A stretch of 64,000 nt of DNA from assembly GCA_046727855.1 (NCBI GenBank), contig JBKPDL010000068.1, positions 2,216 to 66,215 on the forward strand, read 5' to 3'. How positions within the stretch are numbered: position 1 is the first letter of the stretch; each line of letters begins with the position of its first letter. The notes beneath the pieces were generated by a model. The model did not search any database. It was not told the origin of the DNA and worked only from the letters and a program-made list of their open reading frames with translations. This stretch comes from Acidobacteriota bacterium (GTDB lineage Bacteria > Acidobacteriota > Vicinamibacteria > Vicinamibacterales > UBA2999). The translations under genes and the position numbers were made by a program. Below are positions 527-48,022 of the stretch, one piece after another.

Positions 527-1162
527 TCACTTGCTGCCCGCGGGCGCGTTTGTGGCGCTTGCCGGCCGCTTGCGCTCGAGCTCTCGCACGTAAGCGACGA
601 TCGCCCACCTGTCCGAAGGGGGGATCGCCCAGCGGTACGAGGACATCAACCCCATCCCGTTGGTAATGACGTCGAAAATCTGCCCGTCCGGGTACTTCAG
701 GATCTTCTCCTGGTGGAAGGTGGCGGTCGGGACGTTGCCTCGCTGGAACAGGATCCCCTTGCCGTCCCCACGAGGGTCGTGGCAAGGCTGACAATAGATC
801 ACGTAGCGCTGGCGGCCGCGCTCGAGAAGCGCTTCGTCTACGGGATGCGGGATCGCCGCGACGAACTGCCCGTCCGCCCCCTTTCCGGTGAAGAAGGCCG
901 TGTCTTCCTTCAGCCCCCCGATCGGGACCGTTCCGGGAACCGGCTCGCGCATGGACGCGCCGTTGTAGAAGAAATCGCTGGCCGTCTGCGGAAGGACCTT
1001 CGGCTGGTCGTCCATGCTCGGGTTGATATGGATGGGAGGACGGCTCGACGTGCAGCCGCGCGCGCAGCCGGTGAGGGCGAAAAGAGAGGCGAACGCGAGC
1101 GCGCCCAGTACGCGTCCACCGCCGCTAAAGCTTCGGCGGACAAGCCGTGTGCGGACGTTCAT
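527..1162 (-). CDS. lipoprotein-type mono-heme cytochrome c, paralog of ActE
   Basis: 211 aa with a single CxxCH (CQPCH) and a lipobox-like signal (ASLFALTGC). Aligns by eye with the ActE ORF at 11493..12137: RQRYVIYCQPCHDPRGDGKG vs QQRFNIYCSPCHGRLGDGNG; DVITNGMGLMSSY vs DVITNGFGAMQGY; DRWAIVAYVREL vs DRWLIAAYVRAL. Overlaps the upstream gene by 4 nt. Confidence 0.8.
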   Translation of the reverse strand: MNVRTRLVRRSFSGGGRVLGALAFASLFALTGCARGCTSSRPPIHINPSMDDQPKVLPQTASDFFYNGASMREPVPGTVPIGGLKEDTAFFTGKGADGQFVAAIPHPVDEALLERGRQRYVIYCQPCHDPRGDGKGILFQRGNVPTATFHQEKILKYPDGQIFDVITNGMGLMSSYRWAIPPSDRWAIVAYVRELERKRPASATNAPAGSK

Positions 1163-4100: not shown

Positions 4101-4269
4101 CGGCAAGCGACAGCGAGGCGCCCACGAGCATCATCATGTCGCGCCGGGTGATCCCCTCGGGAAGCTCCGAGGCGCCCTCCGGGAATTCCCGCTCGAGAGA
4201 GGCGCGAAATTCGGGGCTTTGCTCGATCTGCGCGAGACTTCGCCAATAGTCCCGCGTCACCGGTGGCAC
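1159..4269 (-). CDS. ActB-like subunit (Tat-signal molybdopterin-oxidoreductase-like domain fused to a 4Fe-4S ferredoxin domain), second copy
   Basis: 1036 aa. Twin-arginine-like N-terminus ITRRDMMMLVGASLSLAGLAAC. C-terminal Cys clusters CIGCNACMTAC, CMHCEDAPCEQVCP, CIGTRYCSNNCP and CTYC. Collinear with the 14119..17658 ORF (shared HEGRPTKIEGNP and GRFANDGWLQELP). GTG start at 4269 overlaps the ActA-like gene by 13 nt. Confidence 0.85.
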   Translation of the reverse strand: MPPVTRDYWRSLAQIEQSPEFRASLEREFPEGASELPEGITRRDMMMLVGASLSLAGLAACRRPVEEIVPFVTAPEEIVPGIPRYYATTMPFGRSAYGLIVESHEGRPTKIEGNPSHPSTLGASSSRVQASVLGLYDPDRSQAVMLKGERKAWSDFVTAWGQLSEAHAADGGAGLAVLSDSFSSPTLARLVSELRARYPRLQWATYDAVSDENRLAGLRQATGRDLDLMLRVDRASVILCLDADPLLTDPEMIRHARGFASGRQAGASGGAMNRLYAVEAVYSLTGAMADHRLRLESRQIAALLAALASRLAPSAAGVASASGASIPGVDPRWIDAVAKDLLAHRGKGLIVAGDRQPAAVHAAVCALNTHLGNTGQTVSYYEAKDAALPSLSSLASLVAAMNAGTIKTLVVLGGNPVFDAPADLDFASAMAKVSTSIALAHTVDETSAKATWHIPRAHYLESWGDARAVGGTLSVVQPLILPLFGGRSPVEVLGLMVGSKDRPGYDIVRETWKPILAEADFDRKWNRVLHDGLLSGSELPEVVPNLTVQPLAELARSIGGGAGATGSGAAAGESRSGLEVVFLPSPSVHDGRFANDGWLQELPDPLTKLTWDNPALVSPKTADSLGLANEDWVRLDYAGRSLELPVWLLPGMTDGVVALTLGYGRSHAGRIGSRVGFDTFTVRSSKAPGFDSGVSLTKLARTYPLAATQEHGSMEGRPVVRESTLTALRSNSAAGAERAGSAHEGDPPQHPEGGKVPGALGVFEEQPHHFSLWKEHTYDQGHQWGMTIDLNACIGCNACMTACQSENNVPVVGKIQVAKQREMHWIRVDRYFSGEPSGNPEVVFQPVPCMHCEDAPCEQVCPVAATVHDREGLNVMVYNRCIGTRYCSNNCPYKVRRFNFFNFTKDTPDILKLAMNPDVTVRARGVMEKCTYCTQRINRAKIDAKLAGRALRDGDVKTACQQACPASAIEFGDLRDASSRVVKAKADARNYALLDELNTRPRTTYLAKVRNPNPDLEDARTNAGVGHRTKEERPVS

Positions 4270-4904
4270 CCCGAACAGTCAGTCGGCGGATTGACCGCAC
4301 GTTCGCGGTCGAGCTGCGCCGCGAGCGCTTGAACATCCCGCGGAGGCGTCCACCTCATGTTGGTGACTTCCGAGACGGGGCGTCTGTAGGGACCGGGGTT
4401 GCGGTGGCAGTCGAGGCACCAGCTCATGCTGAGCGGCGTCATCTGCGTAACCGTTTCCATCTCGTCGATGCGGCCGTGGCAGGTGACGCAGCCGATTCCT
4501 GCCGTCACGTGCACGCGGTGGGGGAAATAGGCATAGTCGGGAAGATTGTGGACGCGAATCCAGCGCATCGGGCGGCCGCTCTGGGCGCTGTCCCGAATCG
4601 GTGCGAGCAGCGCGCTGTCCCTCTTCACGGTCTGATGGCAGTTCATGCACGCCTGCGTGGGCGGAACGTTGGCGACGTTAGAAATCTCGACCGACACGTG
4701 ACAGTATCGGCAATCGAGACCGAGCTCGCCGGCGTGGAGCTTGTGGCTGTACGGTACCGGCTGAACGGGACGGTAGCCCACATCTGTGTACCACGGGGAA
4801 AAGTAGTACCAGACGCCCGCGATCGCGAGCGCCGGGCCGAGAGTGCCCGCAATGGCCGTCACGATCGGGAGTTTGTTCCACCAGGGGGGAAAAATTTGGG
4901 CCAA
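4257..4904 (-). CDS. ActA-like membrane-anchored pentaheme cytochrome c, second copy
   Basis: 215 aa with five CxxCH motifs (CRYCH, CMNCH, CVTCH, CLDCH, CSGCH) and an N-terminal TM helix. Paralog of 17673..18332 (AQIFPPWW vs SQIFPKG). The start codon is TTG at 4904..4902 with GGAG about 10 nt upstream. Confidence 0.85.
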   Translation of the reverse strand: MAQIFPPWWNKLPIVTAIAGTLGPALAIAGVWYYFSPWYTDVGYRPVQPVPYSHKLHAGELGLDCRYCHVSVEISNVANVPPTQACMNCHQTVKRDSALLAPIRDSAQSGRPMRWIRVHNLPDYAYFPHRVHVTAGIGCVTCHGRIDEMETVTQMTPLSMSWCLDCHRNPGPYRRPVSEVTNMRWTPPRDVQALAAQLDRERAVNPPTDCSGCHR

Positions 4905-5122: not shown

Positions 5123-5425
5123 CTACTGCAGGCGAGGCGGAACGGGCAGCCACCCGCGCGAGGCGTAATCCGCCATCGTCAATCCAAGCAGGATGAAGAG
5201 AAAGAAGAAGCCCGAGAGGATCACGAGTTTGGTGAGCCGGCTGCTGTACTTCACGTGCATGAAGTACAGAATCACGAGCGTGGCCTTGATCGACGCAATC
5301 CCAAGCGCCACGACCTTGTTCAACTCTCCGAGGTTCAGGTAGGCGACGAGCACCGTGATCGTCGTGAGGACCATCAGCGTGACGAAGACGAGAATGTACG
5401 ACTTGACGGAGGCGATGTGCGACAT
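5123..5425 (-). CDS. ctaF: cytochrome c oxidase subunit IV (prokaryotic CtaF/COX4_pro family)
   Basis: 100 aa with three hydrophobic helices and the motif ATLVILYFMHVKY. Sits directly after subunit III. Confidence 0.75.
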   Translation of the reverse strand: MSHIASVKSYILVFVTLMVLTTITVLVAYLNLGELNKVVALGIASIKATLVILYFMHVKYSSRLTKLVILSGFFFLFILLGLTMADYASRGWLPVPPRLQ

Positions 5426-5428
5426 GGC

Positions 5429-6275
5429 TCAGGATCGATCGATGAGATAGAGCAGCGGGAACAGATAAATCCACACGATGTCGACGAAGTGCCAGTAGAG
5501 GCCGCTCATCTCCACGGGCGTGTAGTAGTTGGCGTCGAACCTGCCGATCCACGCCATGAACGTGATCACGGTCAGCAGCGCGATGCCGACGATCATGTGG
5601 AGCGCGTGCAGCCCGGTCATCGTGAAGTACAGGCTGAAGAAGATCTGCGTGTGCTGCTGGAGCGCTGGATCGCGCTGTGCGGCAGTCGCCGCGTGCGTTG
5701 TGTGGGCTGGCGGCGCGGCGTGCTCGCCCGCGGACGCGCCGGACTCGACAGGCGCCACGCGTCCGGGCACCTCGCCTTCGGCACCCGCCGCGCCTGCCTC
5801 GTGCCCTGCGGCCGGTTCGGCCGCATGTGAATCCCACACGAAGTCCGGGCCCGGCACGTGATGATGCTCGAACTTGTCCGCGTACTCGATCACCTTGACG
5901 CCGAGGAACACCGACCCGAGGAACATCGTCGCGATCAGCCATGCGACGGTCGCTTTGCGACGATTGATCTGCGCCGAATGCACGGCCATGGCCATGGTCA
6001 GCGAACTGGCGATCAGCACCACCGTGTTGAACGCGCCCCAGAAGAGCACGATCGACGAGCTCGCGGCCACGAACGCGTCGTGATACCAGATGCGGTAGAG
6101 CATGTAGGCCATGAACAGTCCACCGAAGAACAGGATCTCGGTGACCAGGAAGGTCCACATGCCGAACGTGCTCGCCTCCTTTTGCTGCGACATCGACTCG
6201 AAGTGATGCTGCAGCGCGGGATGGTGCGCCGCGTGTGCGTGAACGTGACCGTGAGCGTCGGCTTGAACGACCGTG

Positions 6276-6283
<8 letters not shown>
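5429..6283 (-). CDS. ctaE: cytochrome c oxidase subunit III, with a low-complexity loop insertion
   Basis: 284 aa. Contains [15 protein letters not shown] and [19 protein letters not shown], typical of COX3. An Ala/Gly/Pro/His-rich insert of about 58 aa is encoded at about 5660..5833. Confidence 0.9.
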
Positions 6284-7900
<1,617 letters not shown>

Positions 7901-7901
<1 letters not shown>

Positions 7902-8944
7902 TACGGTTTCCTCGTCGTCGATGTTGCCGACGGCGTTGACGTCGGACCCGGGGCTCCGGGCGGCGTCGTCGCGCCGGGAGCAGCTGGCGTCGCTGGCACG
8001 GCTGGCGCGCTCGAGGCCCCCGGCGAAAGTGATTTGACGTGCTCGATCAGCGCAGCCAGGCCTTCTTCGCTGATGAGGCCCTGGAAGGTCGGCATCAGCG
8101 GTTGAAAGCCTTTGACGATCCTGGCTTGCGAATTCAGGATCGACTCACGCAGATACGCCTCGTTCACGACGGCGGATGAGCCATCCTGGAATTCCACCGG
8201 TTTGCCGTAGATGTCTTTGAGTGACGGACCGCGGCCCTGGCCTGAATCGAGATGGCAGCTGTTGCACGCAAGCTGCTGGAACAGCGCCGCTCCGCGCTGG
8301 GCCAGCGAGCCTTCGCCGCCGCCGGCGAGCCAGGACTGATACGCCGCCGGCTCCATCACCACGACCTGCCCGATCATTCGCGAGTGATTGGTGCCGCAGT
8401 ACTCGGCGCAGAAGATGTGATACGTGCCGGCTTTGTTCGCTTCGAACCATAGCGTGGTGTAGCGGCCGGGAATCACGTCCATCTTCTGGCGAAAGTTGGG
8501 AAAGTACAAGCTGTGGATCACGTCCTCGGACGTCATCGTGACCCTGACGGCACGGCCGAGCGGTACGTGCAGCTCGTTGATCTCGCGCTGGCCCTCGAGG
8601 TGCTGAAACTTCCACATCCACTGTTTGCCAGTGGCATACACCTGCAGCGCCTCTTCCGGATCCCGACGCAGATGGTAGTAAACCGAGGCGCCCCAGCCGA
8701 ACATCACCATGGTGATGATCGTCGGAATGACGCTCCACAGGAGCTCGAGAGCCAGGTTGCCTTCGATCCGCGCGCCGACCTCACCGTCGTGACGCCGGCG
8801 GTACTTGACGCCAAAAATGACCACGGCAACAGCCACGACCAGCGCAAAGAACGCCGAGACGGCGATCACAAAAAAATAGAGCGCGTCGACGTCAGACGCG
8901 AATGTCGATGCCTGCGTGGGAAAGAGGGTGAAACCAGTGTCCAT
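7901..8944 (-). CDS. ctaC: cytochrome c oxidase subunit II fused to a C-terminal cytochrome c domain (caa3-type)
   Basis: CuA motif [15 protein letters not shown] and heme c motif CNSCH, followed by a Pro/Ala/Thr-rich tail. I chose ATG 8944 ([13 protein letters not shown]), 4 nt after the SCO1 stop. The ORF-track start at 9007 would overlap SCO1 by 59 nt. Confidence 0.9.
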
Positions 8945-8948
8945 GTAC

Positions 8949-9791
8949 CTAAACCGGTCGTTCTTCGCGCTGCTCGCGGCTGAGTGCCACCAGGACGAAT
9001 CCGACAAGCGCCACGAGCGTTACGGCACCGCCGATCTGCACAGCCCGCATTGCCAGGAAACTGTACGACCCCGTCGAAGGGTCGTAGTGATAGCAGTAAA
9101 GCAGTAGCTTATCGACGGCGTTGCCGGTTCGTCCGGCTGACGATTCGATGAGCGCAAACTTCACGTCGCGCGGTGCGAACTCGATGCCGAAGAAATAGCG
9201 GGATAGACGGCCGTCGGGTGTCGTGACCACGATCCCGCTGGGATGCGCAAATTGCTGCGTCTTGTCGTCCCACGCGTAATGGAACCCGGCGGCGTCGGTC
9301 ACGCGGCGAATCGAGGCTTCTTCTCCAGTAAGAAAGTGCCACCCCGATTCCGAACCGGGCCGCTTATAACGATCGATGTGCGCTTTTTTCTTGCCTGCGG
9401 CGAGCGGCGGCAGCTCGCGTGGATCGAAGCTGATGACGACGACGTCGAAATCCTGGCCCACGGTCTCGGTGAGCACGGTCAACGCGCTCGTGAGGCCGTT
9501 GAGCACCTGCGTACAGAGCATCGGGCACTCGTAGTACGCGAAGGCGAGCACGACCGGTTTGGTCCCGAAATACTGTCCGAGCTGCACGCTACGGCCGTCC
9601 TCGTCCTTGAATGTTGCGTCGAGCGGCAGTCGTTCGTTCAGACGCTGATCGAAACGAACATCCTTGAGGATGCCGGGCATCTGGCTCGCCGGCATGCCTG
9701 GATCGGGGCGCACGCCGTGCGCGCCGTCCTGCGCGCGCGCGATGGTTGCGCACGTGAGCGCTACGATGACAACGATCGATCGAAACAGCAT
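8949..9791 (-). CDS. SCO1/SenC family copper chaperone (thioredoxin fold)
   Basis: 280 aa with signal peptide MLFRSIVVIVALTCATIARAQ and the SCO CxxxC motif (YYECPMLCTQVLNG). Positioned immediately upstream of the oxidase genes. Confidence 0.85.
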   Translation of the reverse strand: MLFRSIVVIVALTCATIARAQDGAHGVRPDPGMPASQMPGILKDVRFDQRLNERLPLDATFKDEDGRSVQLGQYFGTKPVVLAFAYYECPMLCTQVLNGLTSALTVLTETVGQDFDVVVISFDPRELPPLAAGKKKAHIDRYKRPGSESGWHFLTGEEASIRRVTDAAGFHYAWDDKTQQFAHPSGIVVTTPDGRLSRYFFGIEFAPRDVKFALIESSAGRTGNAVDKLLLYCYHYDPSTGSYSFLAMRAVQIGGAVTLVALVGFVLVALSREQREERPV

Positions 9792-10311: not shown

Positions 10312-11493
10312 TCAATGAACATGGTGATGAATCGCGTTCGCAAGCCCCGGATCGTTCAACGGCAGCAGCGGACGCGCGCGCAACTGAATCGCAAACAACG
10401 CCAGGAAGATGCCGCCAAGCGCAATCGGCAGCGCCACGTCGAGAAGGCTGACGCTGAACTCTTCGTGGAACTCGGGCGCGACGTACCAGAAGTAATCGAT
10501 GATGCGAATGAACACGAGCCACGCCGCGATCACGCGCAGCCGATTCACGTCGCGCTTGACGTCGCGTGACAACAGCAGCGCGTAGGGCACGGCGAAGTGA
10601 AGAAGAATGAGCGCCACGCCAAGCCATTCGTAGCCGTTGTGCATGCGCCTGACGTAGTGCGGGATTTCCTCGATCGTGTTCGCCGACCAGATGATGAGGA
10701 ACTGCGAGAACGACAGATAGGCCCACAACATCAGGAACGCAAACAGGAGCTTGCCGAGATCGTGGAGATGATGCCTGGTCACGACCGCGTCGAGCGGCGG
10801 ATACTGCGACAGCACGATCAACACGACAATCGCAAAGGCGAGCGCGGACAACCCTTGACCGACCAGAAACAGCAATCCCCAAATGGTCGAGAACCAGTGC
10901 GGGTTGAGCGACATCACCCAATCGACCATCGCGAACGTGAGGATGAGCCCATGCATCACCAGTCCGGCGCCGGAGAGCCGCGCCAGCTTGGAGACCAGAC
11001 GCGGGTCGCCGGTGCGATCCTGCTCGGCCGACCAGCGATTGAGCAGCAGCGCCATGCCCGACCAGATCAGCCAGTAGACAATCTGCCGGATGTAGAAAAA
11101 CGTCGGGTTCAGATACGCCGACTTCTCCCTGATGATCGGATCGTTGGCGGCTTCCGGCGTGCTCCAGTGATAGAGGTGGCCCATGCCGAACAGAATCGGG
11201 ACAAACAGCACGGCCATGAACGGAATCGTTCGCGTCGCCGCTTCCAGGGAGCGCCGGATGACCAGGCCCCAGGCGCCGCCGGTGAGGTGAATCACCATCA
11301 GAATGGCGAGACTCCCCAGCGACACACCGGCCCAGAAAATGTAGGCGACGAGATACGCTTCGAAGAAGCGATCGACCCCCGAAATCACGGACCCGAGAAT
11401 CGTGAGCACGACGCCGACGAGTGCGGCGCCCATTCCAAGCCGCTGCAGGCCGGACAGGTTCTCGGGCGGTTGAAAGGACTCACTCGTGGCCAT
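10312..11493 (-). CDS. actF: ACIII subunit ActF (NrfD-like polytopic membrane protein)
   Basis: 393 aa and very hydrophobic. It occupies the position after actE in the actABCDEF order. The start overlaps the actE stop (TAATG). Confidence 0.8.
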   Translation of the reverse strand: MATSESFQPPENLSGLQRLGMGAALVGVVLTILGSVISGVDRFFEAYLVAYIFWAGVSLGSLAILMVIHLTGGAWGLVIRRSLEAATRTIPFMAVLFVPILFGMGHLYHWSTPEAANDPIIREKSAYLNPTFFYIRQIVYWLIWSGMALLLNRWSAEQDRTGDPRLVSKLARLSGAGLVMHGLILTFAMVDWVMSLNPHWFSTIWGLLFLVGQGLSALAFAIVVLIVLSQYPPLDAVVTRHHLHDLGKLLFAFLMLWAYLSFSQFLIIWSANTIEEIPHYVRRMHNGYEWLGVALILLHFAVPYALLLSRDVKRDVNRLRVIAAWLVFIRIIDYFWYVAPEFHEEFSVSLLDVALPIALGGIFLALFAIQLRARPLLPLNDPGLANAIHHHVH

Positions 11494-12137
11494 TAGCGTT
11501 CCAATTCCCCGCGCTTATCCGCCGGGACGTCGTCGATCTTCGCGTTCTGACTGAGTTGCAGCGCGCGGACGTAGGCGGCAATCAGCCACCGATCGCGGAC
11601 CGGCACCTGCTCGGCATAACCCTGCATCGCACCAAACCCGTTGGTGATGACGTCGAAGAAATAGCCGATTCGTTCCTGGCGGAGTCGATCGTTGTGATAC
11701 GACGCGGCCTGGCGGAGCCCGCGCTGCACCACCATGCCGTTGCCGTCGCCGAGCCGTCCGTGGCAGGGCGAGCAGTAGATGTTGAAGCGCTGCTGTCCGC
11801 GCTTGAGATCGTCGTGCGTGATCGCCATCGGGATGGTGTCGACGACCTGGCCGTCGACCTTGCCCGTGTAGAGCGCTTCATCTGCGCGCAACCAGCCGCG
11901 CGCGACCGTGCCGGCCGGTGGAGTGCGCGATCCGCGGGCATCGGGGAAAAAGCTGTTTGCCTCGAACGGCTCGATGCGCGGCGCGTTGTGCATGTCCTGG
12001 CGGCAGCCCGCGAACAGGGCGATCAGCAGCAGCAACGCCAAGGCGCGGTCGACGCCGAGCCCCGCTCCCGCCGGTATGCGCGGAATCTCGGGAGTGGGGC
12101 CGGGCTTCAGCCCCGCCAACCTACGCAGGAACGTCAT
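11493..12137 (-). CDS. actE: ACIII subunit ActE (lipoprotein mono-heme cytochrome c)
   Basis: 214 aa with lipobox LFAGC and a single CSPCH. GGGGAG lies upstream of ATG 12137. Overlaps the actD end by 17 nt. Confidence 0.85.
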   Translation of the reverse strand: MTFLRRLAGLKPGPTPEIPRIPAGAGLGVDRALALLLLIALFAGCRQDMHNAPRIEPFEANSFFPDARGSRTPPAGTVARGWLRADEALYTGKVDGQVVDTIPMAITHDDLKRGQQRFNIYCSPCHGRLGDGNGMVVQRGLRQAASYHNDRLRQERIGYFFDVITNGFGAMQGYAEQVPVRDRWLIAAYVRALQLSQNAKIDDVPADKRGELER

Positions 12138-12690
12138 AGACTCCCCTTGCGCCGAGCCCGCGAAGGAACTCCGCGGTCAGTGACCGATCGAATCGCGGAT
12201 CGTCCGCCTCAATGACCAGGAAAAACTTGTCCGAGCTCGCCATCGAAAACCGCGGCACGTTGAACACCGGGTGATACGGCTGCGGCAGGCCGTTGGCGAT
12301 GATCATGAAAAACGTCGCCGTCAGCGCGGAGAACAGAATCGTCAGCTCGTACGACGGCACGACGAACGACGGCCAGCTCGCGAACGGGCGGCCGCCGATG
12401 TTCATCGGGTACTCGAGCACTGCGGCCCAGTACTGCAGCGCGAACCCGGTCGCCATGCCAGCGAGTCCGCCTATCAGCGTCGCCAGCGGCAGCCGCGTGC
12501 GCCTGATGTGGATGATCGTGTTGAGCTCCTCGACCGGCACCGGCGTGTACGCCTCGAACCGGGTGAAGCCCTCTGCCGCCGCCCGGCGCGCCGCATCCAC
12601 GCACGCCTGCGCGGTCTCGAACTCCGCCATCACCCCGTGAAGCGCGCCGTGTTCTACCAGCGCGCGTTCGATCCGTTCACCTTGGTCCAT
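12121..12690 (-). CDS. actD: ACIII subunit ActD (DUF3341-like, C-terminal TM helices)
   Basis: ATG 12690 is preceded by GAGG at 6 nt and begins 7 nt after the actC stop. The ORF-track GTG at 12714 would overlap actC. Sequence HGVMAEFETAQACVDAARRAAAEGFTRFEAYTPVPVEEL is typical for ActD as I recall it. Confidence 0.75.
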   Translation of the reverse strand: MDQGERIERALVEHGALHGVMAEFETAQACVDAARRAAAEGFTRFEAYTPVPVEELNTIIHIRRTRLPLATLIGGLAGMATGFALQYWAAVLEYPMNIGGRPFASWPSFVVPSYELTILFSALTATFFMIIANGLPQPYHPVFNVPRFSMASSDKFFLVIEADDPRFDRSLTAEFLRGLGARGVYDVPA

Positions 12691-12697
12691 GGCTACC

Positions 12698-14118
<1,421 letters not shown>

Positions 14119-14119
<1 letters not shown>

Positions 14120-17100
14120 CAGTGCTTCTCGCCTTCGCGCTGGTTCTCACTCGGGCCGTGCATCTCGACGGCATGGCCGCCGACCGCACCCGCCCACGGC
14201 AGCGCGGGATTCGGATTTCTCACCGCCGCCAGATACGTGGTCCGCGGCCGGGTATTGAGGTCTTCGAGCAGCGCGTAGTTGCGCTCGGTCCTTTTCAACT
14301 GCGTCACGCGGCTGTTCGGATCGAGCACGTTGCCGAACACGATGGCGTCGGTCGGACACACCGACTGGCACGCGGTGAGCACGTCGCCGTCGCGGATGTC
14401 GCGCTCTTCGCGCTTGGCCTGGATGCGCGCCGCGTTGATGCGCTGTACGCAGTAGGTGCACTTCTCCATCACGCCGCGGCTTCGCACCGTGACGTCGGGA
14501 TTGCGCTGTAACTGGAACGTGCTCGTATTCCAGTCCTGATACAGCAGGAAGTTGAAGCGCCGCACCTTGTACGGGCAGTTGTTCGAGCAATACCGCGTGC
14601 CGACGCAGCGGTTGTAGACCATGTCGTTGAGGCCTTCGTCGCTGTGTGTGGTGGCGGCAACCGGACAGACGACTTCGCACGGCGCGTTCTCACACTGCTG
14701 GCACGGCAGCGGCTGCCAATACGTGTCCGGGTTATCGAGATCGCCGGTGTAGTAGCGATCGACGCGGAGCCAGTGCATCTCGCGGTTTTTGCCCACCTGC
14801 TCCTTGCCGACGACAGGGATGTTGTTCTCGGCGACGCAGGCCACGACACATGCCCCGCAGCCGGTGCACGTGTTCATGTCGATGGCCATGCCCCACTGCG
14901 GGCTGTTGCTGTAGTCGTACGCAGGATAGAGCGACAGCAGTTTGCCGCCAGGAACGTGCGACATCTCCTGTGCAAACCGTGGATTCTCTTTGTACTCGGC
15001 GAGCGCGTTTGCGCGCACGATGTTGCGGCCTTCGATCGACCAGTGGTCCTGTGTCGTGACCAGACGGTAGTAGTCGCCGGTCTTGCTGACCTCCGCGGCG
15101 CCAAATGACGGTGACGGGCTCCCGCGCAACACGTACGCGTTGAACCCGGTCGCATTCCCGACTCGGCCGGCCCGCGTCCGTCCGTATCCAAGCGTAACGG
15201 TGATGGAATCCTGCGCGTGGCCCGGATTGATGAACACCGGAAGTCGCAGCCGTCGTCCTTCGTGGCGGACTTCGATGATGTCGCCGTTGGAGACATCGAG
15301 CCGTTCTGCCGTACCCGGTGCGATCTGCGCGGCGTTGTCCCACGTCAACTTGGTAACGGGCTTGGGCAGCTCCTGTAACCAGCCGTTGTTCGCAAAGCGG
15401 CCGTCGTAGACCGTCGGGTCGCGGCGGAAATTCACCTCAAAAGCAGGTGCGATCGGTCCGCCTCCGCCGCCCTGAGCTGCGAGCGGAAGCGGCGCGGTCC
15501 CGCCGGAGCTCGCCGGTGATGCATTGCGAGCGGAAGCGGATGCCGCTGGTGCGACAGTTGCGGAGGGGGCGGTCACTGCGGCCGGGGTCGCGATCGCGCG
15601 GGGCACCGCGAGTCCGACTTCGCGTTCCGATCCCGCACCACCCTGCGTGCCGGGCGCGACCGGCGCAACCGTGGCGGCGGAGAAGCCTGTTCCAGGGACG
15701 AATCCGTCGTGCAGCCACTTGCGCCACACGCGCTCGAACTGTGCGGCCGCGCGTTGCTCCGGCGTCATCGGCGGTGGGGCCACTTGCGCGGCAACCGTCG
15801 CGGCGACGTTCTGTTCCGAAGGTTGCGTGCCGCGCGCGCCGGTACCTGCCTGCGCGCCACTGCCAGCGGCCGGTGGGACCGATGGTGTTGCCTGCTGCGC
15901 GCCGGGCGTTGCTGGAGCGCCAGTCAGCGGAACAGACCGTTCACCCGGTGCCGCTTGCGTCTGCGCACCGGCAGCAGTTGCCGCACTGGCGCCCGCCGCG
16001 CCTGACGCGCTCGCAGCTGGTGCAGCTGTTGCACCGGCAGCCAGCGCGCCCTCGGGCGCGTTTGCCATCCAGTATTCCCGCACAACGTCGTAGCCGTTAC
16101 GTTCGGGACGATCCGAGAGTGTCGCAATCAGTTCGTGCGCCGACTTGCCGCCGTACATCGGTTGAATCAGCGGCTGCACGATCGTCACGGTTCCGTCGAA
16201 GCTGCGCGCGTCGCTCCACGCTTCGAGGTAATGCGCTGCGGGGACGTGCCAGTGGCATAGCGTCGCGGTTTCGTCGACGAACAACCCCGAGTGCATCCGC
16301 AGCGCAACCTTCGCCATCGCGTCGGCAAAGTTCAGATCGGCCGGCGCTGTGTATACCGGATTCGACTCGCCGACGATGAGCAGCATCTGCACGCGGCCGG
16401 CCTCCATGTCCGTGACCAGCTCGCGCAACGCGGCATGCTGCTCGGTCGGCACGATCTCCGCGGGCGGCTGATAGCGCACGGTCGCGCCGACATTCCCGAG
16501 CGCCTGATTCATGGCGTGCGCAAGCGCGTGCACGGCGGGCGGCTGCGCGTCGCCGGCAACGACCAGCGACGTGCCGCGATGCGCGGTGAGATCCGCGGTG
16601 ATCGCCTCGACGTACTGTTCAGCGCCGCCAGGCACCACACCTATCGCACCGATCGCACCTGTCGCACCGATCTTTGCGGCGATCGCGCGCGCGAAGCTCT
16701 CGATCTCGCTCGCCTTCATCGGCACGCGATGATCGGCGTTCGCGCCCGTTACCGTCGGCGTTGGCTCTACCGCGTACATGCGGTTCAAACGATCAGGACC
16801 GACGTCGACCCGGCGTCGCGACGCAAATTGACGCGAGTAATACAGATTGGCGCCGCCTTCCGACGCGAGGAAGTCGGCGTGCAGCGAAAGGATGACGTCC
16901 GCTTTCGTGAAGTCGTAGATCGCATGCAGGTATTGCCCCTGCGCGATGCGCGCGCCCGCGCGCGCGTTGTCACGCGTGACCGGCTCCCACTGAATCCACT
17001 TCGCGCCGGGATTGGCGGCCTGCACCTGCTGAATCTGCCGCGCCAGCGTCGGCGAGTTCACGGTCTCAGTAAGGATACGGAGACCCGCTCCCTGCACCGC

Positions 17101-17658
17101 CGACTGCGCCGAGAGTCCCGCGCGTACAGCCGCGATGAACGCACTCCACGGCCGGATCTCTCCGAGTTGTAGGATCGAGGGCGAACGATCGGGGTCGTAG
17201 AGCGTGAGGAGCGACGCCTGCGCGTAGAGATCCGTCGCACCAAGACTCGCGGGATGATCGGGATTGCCTTCGACCTTGGTTGGACGGCCTTCGTGACTTT
17301 CGACGAGCAGGCCCTGCACCTCGCCGCCGAGAGACATGGCAGTGGCGAAAAACAAGGGCCGTCCGGGAATCTCCTCTTCCGGCTGACGCACGTAGGGAAC
17401 GATCAACTCCCTGGGCTGCACGGTGCAGGCCGCGCCCACGCCGGCAAGCGCCAGCGACGCGCTCATCAACTTGAGAAAGCTGCGGCGTCCCACCGGGTCG
17501 AGCCACTCGGTGGCGTTTTGCGGGAACTCGCGATGCAGGTATTCCTGGAACTCCGGCGTTTCGGCGACCGCCTCGAGGCTTCTCCAATAGTGCTTGCCCG
17601 TTGCGCCGCGAAGGCGCGCGCGTAGCGCGCTCAGGTCTGGTGTTCCGGCGTTCTCCAT
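14119..17658 (-). CDS. actB: ACIII subunit ActB (molybdopterin-like domain plus FeS domain) with long Ala/Pro/Gly-rich linker insertions
   Basis: Tat-like GRRSFLKLMSASLALAGVGAC. Contains HEGRPTKVEGNP and FeS clusters CTGCGACVVAC, CQQCENAPCEVVCP and CVGTRYCSNNCP. I prefer ATG 17658 (MENAGTPDLS...) over the TTG at 17685 used by the ORF track. Confidence 0.9.
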
Positions 17659-17672
17659 GTACCCTTTAACCT

Positions 17673-18332
17673 TTACCGGTGACAAACGGAGCAGCTTGTC
17701 AAGTGCTCGATCGTCCCAATCTTGTAGTCCTTGACCAAACGCGCGCCGAGTTGCCGTTGATCTTCGGCGGGCCTGTACCCCATCGTCGTGATCTCCTCAC
17801 GCGGACGCAGATAGGGTGTCGGATCGCGATGGCAGTCGAGGCACCACTCCATCTGCAGCGAGGCCTGCTGCGTCATGAGCGGCATGCGATCGACACGGCC
17901 GTGGCAGGTTTCACAGCCCACGCCCTGCTTCACATGAATGCTGTGATTGAAGTACACGAAGTCGGGCAGATCGTGCACCCGCACCCATTGCAGCGGCTTG
18001 TCGTCGCGGAAACTGGCCCGCACCGGCTCGAGGTACGGGCTGGTCACCCAGATTTGCGAGTGGCAGTTGATGCACGTCTTGGTCGGTGGAATGCCAGCCG
18101 AGGGTGAGACCTCCACCGACGTGTGGCAATACCGGCAGTCGATGCCGATGCCGCCGACGTGATGCTGATGGGAAAACTGGACCGGTTGCTCGACGTTGGT
18201 ATGCGCGGCCGTGACGTAATCCGATCGCTGAATCACGAGCACCAGCCAGCCGAGGCCGAGTACCAAGAATCCAAGGCCAATGATGCTGGCGCGCGACCAC
18301 TGGTTCGCGCCTTTGGGGAAGATCTGCGACAT
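17673..18332 (-). CDS. actA: ACIII subunit ActA (membrane-anchored pentaheme cytochrome c)
   Basis: 219 aa with five CxxCH motifs (CRYCH, CINCH, CETCH, CLDCH, CSVCH) and an N-terminal TM helix. Confidence 0.9.
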   Translation of the reverse strand: MSQIFPKGANQWSRASIIGLGFLVLGLGWLVLVIQRSDYVTAAHTNVEQPVQFSHQHHVGGIGIDCRYCHTSVEVSPSAGIPPTKTCINCHSQIWVTSPYLEPVRASFRDDKPLQWVRVHDLPDFVYFNHSIHVKQGVGCETCHGRVDRMPLMTQQASLQMEWCLDCHRDPTPYLRPREEITTMGYRPAEDQRQLGARLVKDYKIGTIEHLTSCSVCHR

Positions 18333-37972: not shown

Positions 37973-38452
37973 ATGAGCGATCGGAAATACCGTCAGCGCG
38001 GTTATCAGGACGATGGTCGCGAGCGGCAGCCGCGACCGGCGTCGCCGGATGGACAACCGCGCCGACCGGAACGTGAACCCGGCGCTCCGGCGGGCGCACG
38101 CCGCATTTCGTCCGAAGGTGCGAAGAACCCGAACATGCCGGGTTTTCGCGAAGTGGCCCGATGCGCGCGATGTGGAAGCCTCGTTGAAGTGCAGGTGTTC
38201 TCGCGCAGCAAGTGCACAAAGTGCGGTCAGGACCTGCACTCATGCGCGCAGTGCGTGCATTTCGATCCGGGTGCACGTTTCGAATGCACGCAGCCGATTG
38301 CGGCACGGGTGTCGCCGAAAGACGTCGCCAACGAGTGTCAGTTCTTCACGGCGCGCACCACATGGGAGCGCGAGACCTCGTCGGCCGTCAGCAACAAGCC
38401 GGCTGAACCATCCGGCGCGCGCAAGGCCTTCGACGACCTGTTCAAGTTCTGA
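37973..38452 (+). CDS. hypothetical Cys-rich zinc-ribbon protein with a basic, disordered N-terminus
   Basis: 159 aa starting MSDRKYRQRGYQDDGRERQPRP.... Followed by CARCGSLVEVQVFSRSKCTKCGQDLHSCAQCVHFDPGARFEC. Ends 18 nt before the next gene, so a likely operon. Confidence 0.6.
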   Translation: MSDRKYRQRGYQDDGRERQPRPASPDGQPRRPEREPGAPAGARRISSEGAKNPNMPGFREVARCARCGSLVEVQVFSRSKCTKCGQDLHSCAQCVHFDPGARFECTQPIAARVSPKDVANECQFFTARTTWERETSSAVSNKPAEPSGARKAFDDLFKF

Positions 38453-38470: not shown

Positions 38471-39133
38471 ATGGCCCTCCTTTCTGCTCAGGATGCCCAG
38501 GTCCTGACCGAGCACCTGTCGCCGATTCAGAAGCGCGTCACCCTCGTGCTCTTCACCCAAACGATCGGCGGATCCGAAAGTGGTCCAGTCGCCAGGCAAG
38601 TGCTCGATGAGCTCGCCACGCTCAACGACCAGGTCGAAGTGGTGGAAAAGAACTTCATCCTCGATCTCGACGATCGCGCGAAGTACGGTGTCGACAAGTC
38701 TCCCGCGATCGTGGTTTTGTCGGACGGCGACGACACGCGCATGCGGTTTTTCGGCGCGCCCACCGGCTACGAGTTCGTTCCGCTCGTCGAGGCGGTGCTC
38801 CTGGCAGGAACGGGCCATCTCGAGCTCCAGGGCGAGACCAAGGCGTTGCTCGCCACGGTCGCCAAGCCGATGCATTTGCAGGTGTTCTCCACACCCACGT
38901 GACCGCATTGCCCCAGGGCGGTCGTCCTGGCGCACAAAATGGCGTACGCGAATCCGCACATCACCGCTTCGGCGGTCGAGGCCACGGAGTTCATGGAACT
39001 CACGCGCCGCTATCGCGTCACCGGCGTTCCCAAAACCATCGTCAACGACGACGTCGAGATTCTTGGCGCGCTGCCTGAGGAAATGTTCGTCCGGGCGGCG
39101 CTGCAAATCCCCGAAGACCAGCCGTCCGCATAG
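38471..39133 (+). CDS. two-thioredoxin-fold glutaredoxin-like / protein-disulfide-oxidoreductase-like protein with in-frame TGA (probable selenocysteine, U-P-H-C motif)
   Basis: ORFs 38471..38902 and 38939..39133 share a frame (offset 468 nt). The only stop between them is TGA 38900..38902. The joined product reads ...HLQVFSTPT-U-PHCPRAVVLAHKMAYANPHITASAVEATEFMELTRRYRVTGVPKTIVNDDVEILGALPEEMF. The TGA aligns with the first Cys of the CPxC motif of PDO-type proteins. See the SECIS candidate feature. Confidence 0.65.
38910..38933 (+). promoter_or_regulatory. candidate bacterial SECIS hairpin 8 nt downstream of the in-frame TGA
   Basis: GCCCCAGG (38910-17) pairs with CCTGGCGC (38926-33): 7 base pairs and one C.C mismatch. 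The apical loop GCGGUCGU contains GGUC. An alternative, mutually exclusive hairpin is GACCGC (38901-06) / GCGGTC (38918-23), which includes part of the UGA. Confidence 0.45.
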
Positions 39134-39135
39134 AA

Positions 39136-39157
39136 TGACCTCCCGAACGGGAGGTCA
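39136..39157 (+). terminator. 9-bp hairpin after the selenoprotein gene that also sequesters the next gene's Shine-Dalgarno
   Basis: TGACCTCCC-GAAC-GGGAGGTCA. The 3' arm GGGAGG is the only SD-like sequence ahead of ATG 39159. No U-tract is present. Confidence 0.4.
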
Positions 39158-39158
39158 C

Positions 39159-39576
39159 ATGCGCCGCGCCTTTCTCGCTATTGCGTGCTTTCTACTGGCA
39201 GTTGCTGCCAACGCACAGCCATCCGGCAAGCGCGTTTACATTTCGGTTGATCTCGAAGGTATCAGCGGCGTCAACGGCGACGACCAGACGTCGGCCGGAC
39301 AGCCTGAGTACGGACGCGCGCGAAAACTCATGGCCGAAGACGCCAACGCGGCGATTCGCGGCGCGTTCGACGGCGGCGGCAAAGAAAACAGCGCCGCAGC
39401 GTACCGGTCCGTATCGCGTGACGATTCAATATCGCAACTTCACGTTTACCGAGGTGGCAGGCGCGTTCAAGGAAATCGAGGTCGTCGCACCCGACACACT
39501 CAGGTTTGCGCGTGACACGATGCCGGAAGCGTATCGCCTCATTCGCGTGCTCTATCGCTTCATCAACCCGGATTAG
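39159..39576 (+). pseudogene. remnant of an M55 (DppA-type D-aminopeptidase) gene with an internal deletion and frameshift
   Basis: The frame starting at ATG 39159 gives MRRAFLAIACFLLAVAANAQPSGKRVYISVDLEGISGVNGDDQTSAGQPEYGRARKLMAEDANAAIRGAFDGGGKE, an M55-like N-terminus (YISxDxEGxxGV). It then becomes Arg-rich nonsense. A different frame (ORF 39181..39576) ends with PYRVTIQYRNFTFTEVAGAFKEIEVVAPDTLRFARDTMPEAYRLIRVLYRFINPD, which looks like the M55 C-terminus. The total of about 418 nt is roughly half of what I expect for this family. The junction lies near 39385..39410. Confidence 0.5.
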
Positions 39577-45305: not shown

Positions 45306-45395
45306 TGGCGGAGAGGAAGGGATTCGAACCCCTGGAAGCCTTTCGACTTCAACGGTTTTCAAGACCGCCGCCTTAAACCACTCGGCCACCTCTCC
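45306..45395 (-). tRNA. tRNA-Ser (anticodon UGA), type II with a long variable arm and encoded CCA
   Basis: The minus strand reads GGAGAGGTGGCCGAGTGGTTTAAGGCGGCGGTCTTGAAAACCGTTGAAGTCGAAAGGCTTCCAGGGGTTCGAATCCCTTCCTCTCCGCCA. It folds by hand into a cloverleaf. Acceptor stem GGAGAGG/CCTCTCC. Anticodon stem GCGGT/ACCGT with loop CT-TGA-AA. 18-nt variable arm. T-arm AGGGG-TTCGAAT-CCCTT. Confidence 0.95.
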
Positions 45396-45436: not shown

Positions 45437-46660
45437 TCAAGGCACCTGCATCGCGAAACTCTCGACCGACATCGTCAGTATCCGGCGACCGTTCGCGTCG
45501 CCAAACAAATCCATCGCGATCGGCGACAGACCGACGAACTGTATTCTCGCCAGCGTGTCCTGGAGATTCGCCGAGAAAATCGCGAGTGCGCCGCTGCGCG
45601 GGTGCACGTTGCCGTCTACTACGACTTCTTCAAACCAATCCTGGAAATCGCCCACGGTTTCACCCGTTTGCGTCGCTTCAGCGGCAATAATGCTGAACTG
45701 CGGCACACCTGGCGTGAACCGCAGGCGGGTGCCGGTCGTGATCGGAAGCTTCGGCACTGACATCCGGATTCCGCGCACGCCGACCACGCGCCTGGTATCG
45801 ATGCCCTCGATATTCATGGCGAACGCGTGCGAAAAGAACCCGGTTTGCAATTGGGCGTTCACCGTCCCCGAAGTGGAACGCAGGCGGGTCGAGTCAGGAA
45901 CGAGAGTAAAGCTGATCGATCCGGCTGTCTTCTGCGCGGCGTCGAAATCGGCAATCTGAAAATCGCTCAAGTAGGCATCGAAGATCTCGAGGCGCGACAC
46001 CTCTCTGAAGTTCAGGTCGACCTGAATCACGACAGCGTCTTTGACCGACTGATTTCCAGTGGCGACGTTGTTGAACCAATCGATGACTGAAAGAACAAGG
46101 CCGTTGGCTTTGAAGTAGCAGTCCTCGATCTGATCGATGTTGACGGCACATCCAGCGAAGGACGCGAGCCGGAAGGTGACGCCGCCGTCGATCTGTAGAA
46201 AAAAGATTCCGCCGTACGGCGTCGGCGGCACAACCGGTTCCGCAGGTCCGGGCGGTCCAGGAGGACCCGGCGGACCGGCAGGTCCGGTGGGACCGGCGTC
46301 GCCTCTGTCTCCCTTATCGGCTTTGTCACCTTTGTCGCCCTTCGGTCCCGGCGGGCCCTGTGGACCAACGGTCGACACTGGGAGAAGTGCAACATTCAAT
46401 TCGTTGTTGCCAGCCGCAACCGTCACCGTTCGTGTCTCGATCGTCCAGCCGGGCGCGGGAGCCTGCAGGGTAATCGAGTGATCGCCCACCGTCACGCTGA
46501 GCGTCACGGGCGTTACTTTGCCAGTTGGTGTCCCGTCGACAGAGACCTGCGCGCCCGAGGGGAACGAAGTCACTTTGAGCGCGGCGTTTTGCGCGAAGCC
46601 GGGCGAGGCCGTTGCAATTATCGATATGACGAACAGAGCTGTCCTGCAGACCAACGACAT
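45437..46660 (-). CDS. secreted multidomain protein: PEGA-like domain, short collagen-like G-X-Y segment, two tandem phage-tail-tube-like (T4 gp19 / 'phage tail region protein'-like) domains
   Basis: 407 aa with signal peptide MSLVCRTALFVISIIATASPGFAQ. PEGA-like segment: VTSFPSGAQVSVDGTPTGKVTPVTLSVTVGDHSITL. G-X-Y run: GPQGPPGPKGDKGDKADKGDRGDAGPTGPAGPPGPPGPPGP. C-terminal halves: FFLQIDGGVTFRLASFAGC...VIDWFNNVATGN...DAVVIQVDLNFREVSRLEIFDAYLSDFQIADFDAA...ISFTL, and FAMNIEGIDTRRVVGVRGI...FTPGVPQFSIIAAEATQ...DFQDWFEEVVVDG...GALAIFSANLQDTLARIQFVGLSPIAM. Both match my memory of the tail-tube family consensus (F.V.IDG...F.evsGL ... W...v..G ... i.l.d..g..v..w.l.na.P.k....ldA...vaiE.l.L). Not verified by search. 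Confidence 0.5.
   Translation of the reverse strand: MSLVCRTALFVISIIATASPGFAQNAALKVTSFPSGAQVSVDGTPTGKVTPVTLSVTVGDHSITLQAPAPGWTIETRTVTVAAGNNELNVALLPVSTVGPQGPPGPKGDKGDKADKGDRGDAGPTGPAGPPGPPGPPGPAEPVVPPTPYGGIFFLQIDGGVTFRLASFAGCAVNIDQIEDCYFKANGLVLSVIDWFNNVATGNQSVKDAVVIQVDLNFREVSRLEIFDAYLSDFQIADFDAAQKTAGSISFTLVPDSTRLRSTSGTVNAQLQTGFFSHAFAMNIEGIDTRRVVGVRGIRMSVPKLPITTGTRLRFTPGVPQFSIIAAEATQTGETVGDFQDWFEEVVVDGNVHPRSGALAIFSANLQDTLARIQFVGLSPIAMDLFGDANGRRILTMSVESFAMQVP
46244..46366 (-). repeat. collagen-like G-X-Y triplet-repeat coding segment
   Basis: About 13 G-X-Y triplets (aa 99-139) with one interruption (ADK), encoded by GGN-CCN-rich DNA. Confidence 0.8.
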
Positions 46661-46732: not shown

Positions 46733-48022
46733 TCAAGAGACGGCCTCGATCAATTCGTTCCCGTTCATGAACGGTCGCAATGCTGTCGGAATCGCGACGG
46801 AGCCATCGCGCTGCTGGCAGTTCTCGAGAATGGCAATCAAGGTGCGGCCGACGGCCAGTCCCGATCCGTTCAAGGTGTGGACGAAGTCGGCCTTGCCGGT
46901 TCCCTGCGGCCGATACTTGATGTTGGCGCGCCGCGCCTGAAATGCTTCCGTATTGGAGCACGACGAAATCTCGCGATACATCTGCTGGCTCGGCAGCCAC
47001 ACTTCGAGGTCGTAGGTCTTCGCTGCGGCGAAACCCATATCGCCGGTTGACAACACCACCGTGCGATACGGCAATTCGAGCAGCTGCAACACACGCTCGG
47101 CGTCCGCCGTCAGCCCTTCGAGCTCGTCGTACGACGTTTCCGGCTCGGTAAATTTCACGAGCTCCACCTTGTCGAATTGATGCTGGCGAATGAGGCCACG
47201 CACGTCGGCGCCGTACGAACCTGCCTCGCTGCGGAAGCACGGTGTATACGCCGTGAACTTCAGCGGCAGCAAACGGCCGTCGAGGATCTCGCCGCGATAC
47301 AGGTTCGTCAGCGGCACTTCGGCAGTCGGAATCAGATACAGATCCCACTCGCCGCCAATTTTAAAAAGGTCCTGCTCGAACTTCGGCAGTTGTCCGGTCC
47401 CGTAGAGCGTTGCCGCATTGACGAGAAACGGCGGTTCGATTTCGGTGTAGCCATGCTCGGTCGTGTGCAGATGGAGCATGAAATTGATCAACGCGCGCTC
47501 GAGTTGCGCGCCTGCGCGCATGAGGACCGCAAAGCGCGCGCCGGCAATCTTGGTGGCGCGCTCGAAGTCGATGATCCCGAGCTGCGGGCCGAGTTCCCAG
47601 TGAGGCTTTGCCTCGAAATCAAACGAGCGAGGCTCGCCCCACTTGCGGATCTCGACGTTGTCCTGCGCGCTCTTTCCAACGGGCACGCTCTCGTGCGGCA
47701 CATTCGGCATGGTCGCGAGCAGTCGGCTGCGCTGACCTTCGGCCGCATCGAGTTCGACTTCCATCTGCTTGATTTTGGCCGCGCGCATCTTGCTCGCTTC
47801 GAAGAGCGGCCGTGCGTCCTGGCCCTGGCGCTTCGCGCGCGCAACCTCGTCCGCCGCGGCGTTCTGCTCGCGCTTGAGCCCCTCGAGCTGCGGAATCAGC
47901 CGGCGGCGCTGCGTTTCCAACGTTGCCAGCTGCTCGAGGTCTTTGGTCAGATCGAGACCTCGCGCCGCCATGCGTTGCCGCACGAGTTCCAGGTTGTCGC
48001 GAATGAAGCCCGGATCGAGCAT
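46733..48022 (-). CDS. serS: seryl-tRNA synthetase
   Basis: 429 aa. N-terminal coiled-coil [25 protein letters not shown]. Class II motifs include [25 protein letters not shown] and [18 protein letters not shown]. Confidence 0.97.

Follow-up and report, generated by a model that had tools for sequence, protein, structure and literature searches.

A probable selenocysteine codon in a split gene for a protein disulfide oxidoreductase of an Acidobacteriota bacterium

What does a lone in-frame TGA codon mean in a gene that is otherwise open from end to end? The question is raised by a locus in a 64,000-nucleotide stretch of contig JBKPDL010000068.1 from an Acidobacteriota bacterium (the whole stretch is referred to here as the window), in which two open reading frames (ORFs), 38471..38902 (143 amino acids) and 38939..39133 (64 amino acids), lie in the same frame, and the only stop codon between the ATG at 38471 and the TAG at 39131-33 is a TGA at 38900-38902. 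Read-through would give a 220-residue product that runs ...VFSTPT-[TGA]-PHCPRAVVLAHKMAYANP... across the junction. ORF callers split this gene into a 143-residue 'AhpF' fragment and a 64-residue 'Thioredoxin_3' fragment, the name 'AhpF' being that given by JGI to P0008 and P0011. From comparison with relatives, we conclude that the UGA at 38900-02 is very probably decoded as selenocysteine (Sec) in a single 220-residue protein disulfide oxidoreductase (PDO) selenoprotein encoded by 38471..39133. The features on which this reading turns are as follows.

38471..39133, + strand: predicted PDO selenoprotein gene of 220 codons, with ATG at 38471, the putative Sec-UGA as codon 144, and the stop codon TAG at 39131-33.
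38900..38902, + strand: in-frame UGA, read here as selenocysteine, residue 144.
38900..38911, + strand: U-P-H-C redox motif (UxxC), the predicted sole redox centre of the PDO protein.
38555..38587, + strand: degenerate N-terminal 'active-site' stretch TQTIGGSESGP, with SESG in place of CxxC.

Seven conspecific JGI metagenome contigs, independent of one another (L001-L007; protein 97-99% identical), carry the TGA, which is therefore not a sequencing or assembly error. The downstream frame is open in all six conspecific contigs that reach past the PDO gene, and L007, the most divergent conspecific, has four synonymous and four conservative changes downstream and no insertion or deletion. TGA is also used as an ordinary stop codon in this genome, for example at 38450-52 at the end of the upstream gene, so recoding at 38900-02 would be site-specific.

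With the TGA read as Cys, the joined protein scores 224.3 bits against NCBIfam TIGR02187.2 'PDO_seleno_TRX' (product name, protein disulfide oxidoreductase; cutoff, 185), with residues 7-211 on profile positions 3-207 of 209, and matches Pfam Thioredoxin_3 (1e-17) over residues 134-211, an interval that spans the TGA. It aligns end to end with the PDOs of Pyrococcus (1J08/1A8L) and Aquifex (2AYT/2YWM) in the Protein Data Bank (PDB) at E values of 1e-28 to 1e-29, the 1J08/1A8L alignments covering residues 1-211, and it would thus comprise two tandem thioredoxin-fold units in about 220 residues. Among 5.8 billion proteins searched, more than 3000 homologs came up. Those of full length (217-231 amino acids) are named 'glutaredoxin-like protein'; TP[TS]-C-PHCP is present in all 20 that were aligned, and the TGA column is Cys in all full-length homologs aligned (TPT-[TGA]-PHC versus TPT-C-PHC or TPT-C-PYC). 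In the Pyrococcus PDO, the TGA column is occupied by the first Cys of CPYC, the C-terminal active site. CxxC is missing from the N-terminal unit of the window's protein, whose IGGSESG stands opposite CESC of the Aquifex PDO (2YWM) and CQYC of the Pyrococcus PDO (1A8L/1J08), and Cys is absent at this site in every close relative aligned. A two-site PDO of the Pyrococcus or Aquifex type is ruled out by the missing N-terminal CxxC.

An earlier note on this DNA had claimed the common frame, the sole TGA and a read-through product of about 220 residues, all of which are found in the sequence as it described them. Its further claims also hold: the TIGR02187 score and the PDB alignments agree with a two-domain thioredoxin-fold PDO/glutaredoxin-like protein, the full-length relatives and the PDB PDOs concur in placing the TGA on the first Cys of the C-terminal CPxC, and the lack of CxxC in the N-terminal unit when aligned with the PDB PDOs fits its proposal that U-P-H-C is the only redox centre. 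Among the best 120 protein matches, the only truncated ones are the window's conspecifics, which bear the JGI name 'AhpF'. For the 143-residue fragment this name is a mis-annotation; AhpF proper is rejected by a score of 63.8 bits against the TIGR03140 cutoff of 502.9, and by a length of 220 residues with no reductase module.

The simplest view of the TGA is that it terminates translation, so that the product is a 143-residue N-terminal domain, and the 64-residue ORF from the ATG at 38939 is either a separate small protein or unexpressed. This matches the ORF-caller output (P0008, P0011), and since Sec insertion is never free of competition from termination, part of the product is probably truncated in vivo. 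However, the N-terminal unit alone has no redox Cys, and the 64-residue piece starting at M156 would have neither the redox motif nor the fold's first helix. The 12 codons that separate the TGA from the ATG at 38939 (PHCPRAVVLAHK) encode the remainder of the active site and show in-frame conservation. We therefore consider it very unlikely that the UGA serves only as a stop.

How general is the TGA at this position? We wrote the motif V-F-x-T-P-x-TGA-P-H-C-P as a degenerate DNA pattern and scanned two public collections with it, for each of which about one chance match is estimated. The TGA form is present in at least 240 loci, of which at least 120 are in genomes distinct at species level and at least 120 on metagenome contigs, and the hosts among the matches listed include Acidobacteriota, Chloroflexota, Methylomirabilota/Rokubacteria, Actinomycetes, Armatimonadota, Desulfosporosinus, Sulfobacillus, and others. 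At least 55 downstream residues can be aligned to the window's C-terminus in 231 of the 240 TGA loci listed, so that, as the earlier note had anticipated, orthologs show either Cys or TGA in this column rather than an end of the protein. Among the same 240, the most frequent in-frame lengths after the TGA are 68-83 codons, and the alignable residues include the conserved C-terminal pattern E-x-x-E-F ... Y-x-V-x-[AG]-V-P-[KR]. P-H-C-P is invariant in the 236 TGA-form sequences tabulated, which is partly imposed by the search pattern.

The window's gene falls in a clade that we defined by protein sequence only (VF[ST]TPT-U-PHCPRAVVLA), comprising 19 sequences with a median of 72% amino-acid identity over 96 codons. 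Over codons +11 to +68, counted from the TGA, the window and 12 clade members differ with a ratio of nonsynonymous to synonymous substitution (dN/dS) of 0.09-0.27 and a synonymous divergence (dS) of 0.8-1.6, and purifying selection after the TGA is at least as strong as that on the 30 codons before it. The region after the TGA is therefore translated.

Is there a signal for Sec insertion in the RNA? Immediately downstream of the UGA lies a hairpin that is a good candidate for a bacterial selenocysteine insertion sequence (SECIS; bSECIS for the bacterial form).

38913..38930, + strand: putative bacterial SECIS core, with stem CCAGGGC 38913-19 paired to GUCCUGG 38924-30 (7 bp including one G.U) and loop GGUC 38920-23.
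38909-11 with 38932-34, + strand: possible lower stem extension, UGC with GCA across the C38912.C38931 mismatch, without comparative support.

The pairing of GCCCCAGG (38910-17) with CCTGGCGC (38926-33) across a C.C mismatch, put forward in the earlier note, is confirmed, and RNAfold adds two further inner pairs, G38918.U38925 and C38919-G38924, which close the tetraloop GGUC. The hairpin proposed in that note is thus essentially the element under RNA-level constraint, although its apical loop is of 4 nt and not 8 nt. Bacterial SECIS elements are described in PMC13188914, which summarises the bSECIS model of Zhang and Gladyshev (2005), as having a loop of 3-9 nt with G in the first two loop positions, an upper stem of 4-16 bp, a UGA-to-loop distance of 16-37 nt, and a minimum free energy of -7.5 kcal/mol or lower; the hairpin at 38913-38930, with its GGUC loop starting 17 nt after the UGA, its 7 bp, and its -15.9 kcal/mol, agrees with all four published bSECIS criteria.

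To give the stability of the hairpin a null, we folded the 36 nt after the UGA in 100 synonymous recodings that keep both protein and codon usage. The native sequence folds at -15.9 kcal/mol versus -8.9 +/- 2.8 kcal/mol for the recodings, none of the 100 being as stable (z -2.5). For a non-redundant set of 218 TGA-form genes, z averages -0.98 (p ~6e-43), whereas four control regions taken from these genes give -0.07 to -0.22. Of 225 TGA-form genes, 214 have a stem of 5 bp or more whose loop begins 18-25 nt from the U of the UGA, and 205 have a G in the first two loop positions. Registers and loops vary across the PDO family, with CGUGC, CGUGCU, GGUC, GGUCA, and GGC all represented.

Within the 19-sequence clade, the constraint is seen at single codons. 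The inner hairpin codons AGG GCG GTC GTC are invariant at all four positions, as compared with 1 of 29 comparable degenerate codons elsewhere, and they include AGG, a rare choice in the window (5.6% of Arg codons). The Pro and Leu codons on either side covary at their third positions, with CCC...CTG in 7 sequences and CCG...CTC in 12, and no mismatches; this switch is a compensatory stem-pair change from C-G to G-C by two synonymous changes. Two unrelated genes, L106 and L226, encode the peptide P-R-A-V-V-L-A with CCG CGA GCC GTG GTG CTC GC, a sequence with a 6-bp hairpin of its own at a shifted register, and the one peptide, U-PHCPRAVVLA, thus appears to have two RNA solutions, that of the window's clade and that of L106/L226.

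The second hairpin put forward in the earlier note, GACCGC 38901-06 with GCGGTC 38918-23, is also present in the sequence. It is not favoured as the SECIS, being broken without compensation in relatives with CCC or CCA at the Pro codon, but it may form as a regulatory alternative fold. At gathering thresholds, Rfam reports no SECIS family in the whole window, and only a tRNA.

The Cys-form orthologs, which differ from the TGA form by a single base at this codon (TGC/TGT), bear on the direction of change. Two of them, P0004 and P0007, share the window's gene order (M55 peptidase / NUDIX / tRNA-U5 methyltransferase, with FKBP also in P0004). In distant Cys forms the Arg codon is CGC and the hairpin is absent, and in P0004 two stem positions are disrupted. 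The Cys form P0001 (L248, gene 445-1098) has TGC followed by the exact window hairpin, including the rare AGG, and looks like a recent Sec-to-Cys switch that has left a 'fossil' SECIS. In a rough neighbor-joining tree without bootstrap, Sec and Cys forms are interleaved, and the window's gene groups with the Sec forms L082, L049, and L208, with the Cys-form P0001 nested inside. Together, this tree and the fossil hairpin of P0001 indicate that TGA was probably ancestral in the window's clade and that some lineages switched to Cys, a pattern that agrees with the 'dynamic' Sec/Cys evolution described in PMC1794560.

These relationships also decide on the alternative that the earlier note itself had raised, in which a recent TGC-to-TGA nonsense mutation struck a Cys-type PDO gene and the downstream part is decaying as a pseudogene. 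Close Cys-form orthologs are indeed one base off, the adjacent M55 peptidase gene has deletions in this strain, and Sec machinery is not seen in the window. Against this, the TGA is common to 19 diverged relatives and at least 240 loci in many phyla, there is no frameshift or further stop downstream, where dN/dS is 0.09-0.27 at dS ~1, the hairpin codons are frozen, and P0001 is nested in a Sec clade in which, on the rough tree, TGA looks ancestral. We reject the nonsense mutation, and regard a pseudogene as extremely improbable.

Several observations nonetheless weigh against Sec decoding. First, the machinery on which Sec decoding by definition depends, selA, selB, selD, and tRNA-Sec (anticodon UCA), is not present in the 64-kb window: a Pfam scan of 40 window ORFs gives no SelA, SelB, or SelD domain, ARAGORN finds no tRNA-Sec in the window or in 60 related loci, and tblastn of the window and all 254 loci with E. 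coli SelA/SelB/SelD queries gives zero matches, a weak negative. Second, the hairpin is no more stable than dinucleotide shuffles of the GC-rich sequence (z -0.62; range, -0.35 to -0.73), although we deem this null uninformative for short hairpins in GC-rich coding sequence and used synonymous recoding instead. Third, a family-wide pair count at one fixed register in a frame-locked alignment gives 66.7% of cells paired versus 64.4% when shuffled, and a slide by -1 scores alike for covariation; this count is indecisive because the hairpin occupies several registers across subfamilies. Fourth, the stem-pair switch in the window's clade may have happened only once in evolution. Fifth, genes are lost locally, as the decaying M55 peptidase gene next door shows for this strain. 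Finally, PMC13188914 places the family among UxxC selenoproteins 'predicted with high confidence', which we take to mean that Sec incorporation in the family is predicted and not experimental.

Could the UGA be read through with something other than Sec? A near-cognate Trp or Cys tRNA or a suppressor tRNA might decode it, with the hairpin only stimulating read-through; the downstream region is clearly translated, yet translation alone does not identify the inserted residue, and the window and the 60 related loci hold no tRNA-Sec. However, the UGA falls exactly on the catalytic Cys of CxxC, making a classic Cys/Sec pair, the hairpin fits a SelB-type SECIS in its spacing and loop G, curators treat the family as a selenoprotein family, and Trp at the catalytic Cys position would inactivate the enzyme. 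Read-through without Sec is, in our judgment, highly improbable.

Sec use is on record in the phylum of the host. Acidobacteria were credited with selenoproteins by 2006 in PMC1794560, and listed Sec users include Occallatibacter riparius (Acidobacteriota). L049 (CAWJVW01) and L082 (CAWEAM01), metagenome-assembled genomes labelled Acidobacteriota, contain the nearest relatives of the window's PDO gene. The window is a housekeeping chromosomal region, with two clusters resembling alternative complex III (ACIII), an aa3 cytochrome oxidase, GyrA/B, UvrD, GlmS/GlmU-like genes, and seryl-tRNA synthetase (SerRS), and the ACIII and aa3 oxidase genes suggest that the host is apparently aerobic. The only tRNA in the window (ARAGORN, Rfam) is tRNA-Ser(tga) at 45306-45395; near the SerRS gene (46733-48022) and with anticodon tga, which decodes UCA, it is an ordinary tRNA-Ser and not tRNA-Sec.

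If the UGA is decoded as Sec, as we favour, the hairpin at 38913-38930 would act as a bacterial SECIS, and we infer that it would be bound by SelB, recruiting SelB.GTP.Sec-tRNASec with the UGA in the ribosomal A site. In the protein, the second thioredoxin fold would carry U-P-H-C where its first helix begins; the selenolate would attack as the nucleophile and Cys147 would resolve the selenenylsulfide. The first thioredoxin-fold unit would have lost its CxxC, now SESG, as in the N-terminal domain of AhpF.

The gene upstream of the PDO gene is a further constant of the locus.

37973..38452, + strand: Cys-rich Zn-ribbon-like ORF of 159 amino acids, 18 nt upstream of the PDO gene.

The N-terminus of this ORF is disordered and rich in Arg, Pro, and Glu, its Cys residues comprise three CxxC pairs and two that stand singly, and the ORF matches no Pfam or NCBIfam family above threshold. 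Homologs (47-85% identity) take the same place and strand, immediately ahead of the PDO gene, in 38 TGA-form loci and also in the Cys-form orthologs L248, L250, and L252, and between the ORF and the PDO gene there is no promoter-like site and no terminator-like site on the + strand. The 18-nt gap given in the earlier note is correct, the ORF is a conserved neighbour, and we infer that the two genes are likely co-transcribed as the operon that the earlier note had suggested. The available parts of the literature on the family do not mention this pairing. In the Cys-ortholog loci L250, L252, and L253, a cytochrome c7 gene is upstream of the Zn-ribbon/PDO pair on the opposite strand, with a large Fer4 gene also in L250 and L253; this proximity may hint at a functional link.

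Downstream of the PDO gene, the M55 peptidase gene is a remnant in the window (39159-39576), while it is intact in L049, L082, and L250. By blastn, window positions 39134-39381 and ~39384-39576 match parts of the intact gene that are ~470 bp further apart, which indicates an internal deletion. L001, L003, and L004 have a different deletion (window positions 39172-39390 missing), the match to L005 and L007 breaks off 248 bp past the PDO gene, and another conspecific contig has a full M55 gene of 293 amino acids. A perfect 9-bp hairpin, TGACCTCCC-GAAC-GGGAGGTCA (39136-39157), begins 3 nt past the PDO stop codon and finishes shortly before the M55 remnant's ATG; it lacks a trailing T-run and is not called by the terminator scan.

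Elsewhere in the window, the two ACIII-like clusters are at 527-4904 and 11493-18332 (cytochrome c7, large Fe-S subunit, NrfD, ActD), and the aa3-type cytochrome oxidase cluster is at 5123-9007. A scan of the window for further genes with in-frame TGA codons gives only two weak candidates, each a single TGA between same-frame stretches of high GC content at third codon positions. The one at 5431 (- strand) separates a COX3 ORF (5429-6283) from a 100-residue ORF (5123-5425) and probably marks adjacent genes, and the one at 47601 (+ strand) lies opposite the SerRS gene and is probably spurious. A 407-residue ORF at 45437-46660 (- strand) has the unusual combination of a PEGA domain, collagen-like repeats, and a weak match to the phage T4 gp19 tail-tube protein.

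In practice, the locus is first of all a matter of annotation. The split annotation hides what is probably a selenoenzyme in an apparently common soil lineage of Acidobacteriota, and the gene is a further, well-supported example of a probably aerobic acidobacterium that uses selenium. The SECIS is seen to freeze synonymous sites and to force the rare codon AGG, and Sec and Cys forms appear to interconvert within one orthologous, syntenic locus. Much more tentatively, and as an idea that we hold to be rather doubtful, the observations could be joined into a broader picture. In soil Acidobacteriota, the Sec-type PDO and the Cys-rich Zn-ribbon protein of no family might form a fixed two-gene module, near alternative-complex-III genes in several relatives, with the Zn-ribbon protein as dedicated redox partner or substrate of the selenoenzyme; the Sec form, with at least 120 species in about ten phyla, might also exceed by far the range that the early literature suggested (two genomes in 2006), might be ancestral to Cys forms more often than that literature implies, and might leave fossil SECIS elements behind, as in P0001. 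If true, the Zn-ribbon/PDO module would be an undescribed selenium-dependent thiol-redox pair in aerobic soil bacteria.

Comparison with known systems places the locus on familiar ground. Like the E. coli fdhF-type SECIS and the bSECIS model, the putative SECIS is a stem-loop in the coding region right after the UGA, with a 4-nt loop starting GG[U]; it shows no sequence similarity to the fdhF element, and none is expected. AhpF has its redox CxxC on the second fold only, and its N-terminal domain (1HYU, 1ZYN, 4O5Q; E ~1e-11) shares the two thioredoxin folds, but AhpF is fused to an FAD/NADH thioredoxin-reductase-like module whereas the window protein would stand alone; no AhpC or AhpF reductase gene is found in the window. 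The archaeal and Aquifex PDOs (1A8L, 1J08, 2AYT/2YWM, 2HLS) share the two-unit architecture, the C-terminal TPTCP[YH]CP, and the cis-Pro region VP[K], and differ in having Cys and not Sec, and in that their N-terminal unit bears a further CxxC (CQYC, CESC) at the site of the window's SESG.

The closest likeness is with the known PDO_seleno_TRX selenoproteins, a family reportedly described in 2004. The window's gene belongs to this already known selenoprotein family and reveals no new mechanism or family. A 2006 survey (PMC1794560) tabulates the family in Carboxydothermus and Symbiobacterium only. As in those selenoproteins, the score is above the curated cutoff, the predicted protein is stand-alone, of about 220 residues with two thioredoxin folds and a single UxxC, Sec would take the place of the first Cys of the C-terminal CxxC, the candidate SECIS directly follows the UGA, and Cys-form homologs exist. 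Nothing essential sets the window's gene apart, its host being an uncultured, apparently aerobic member of the Acidobacteriota.

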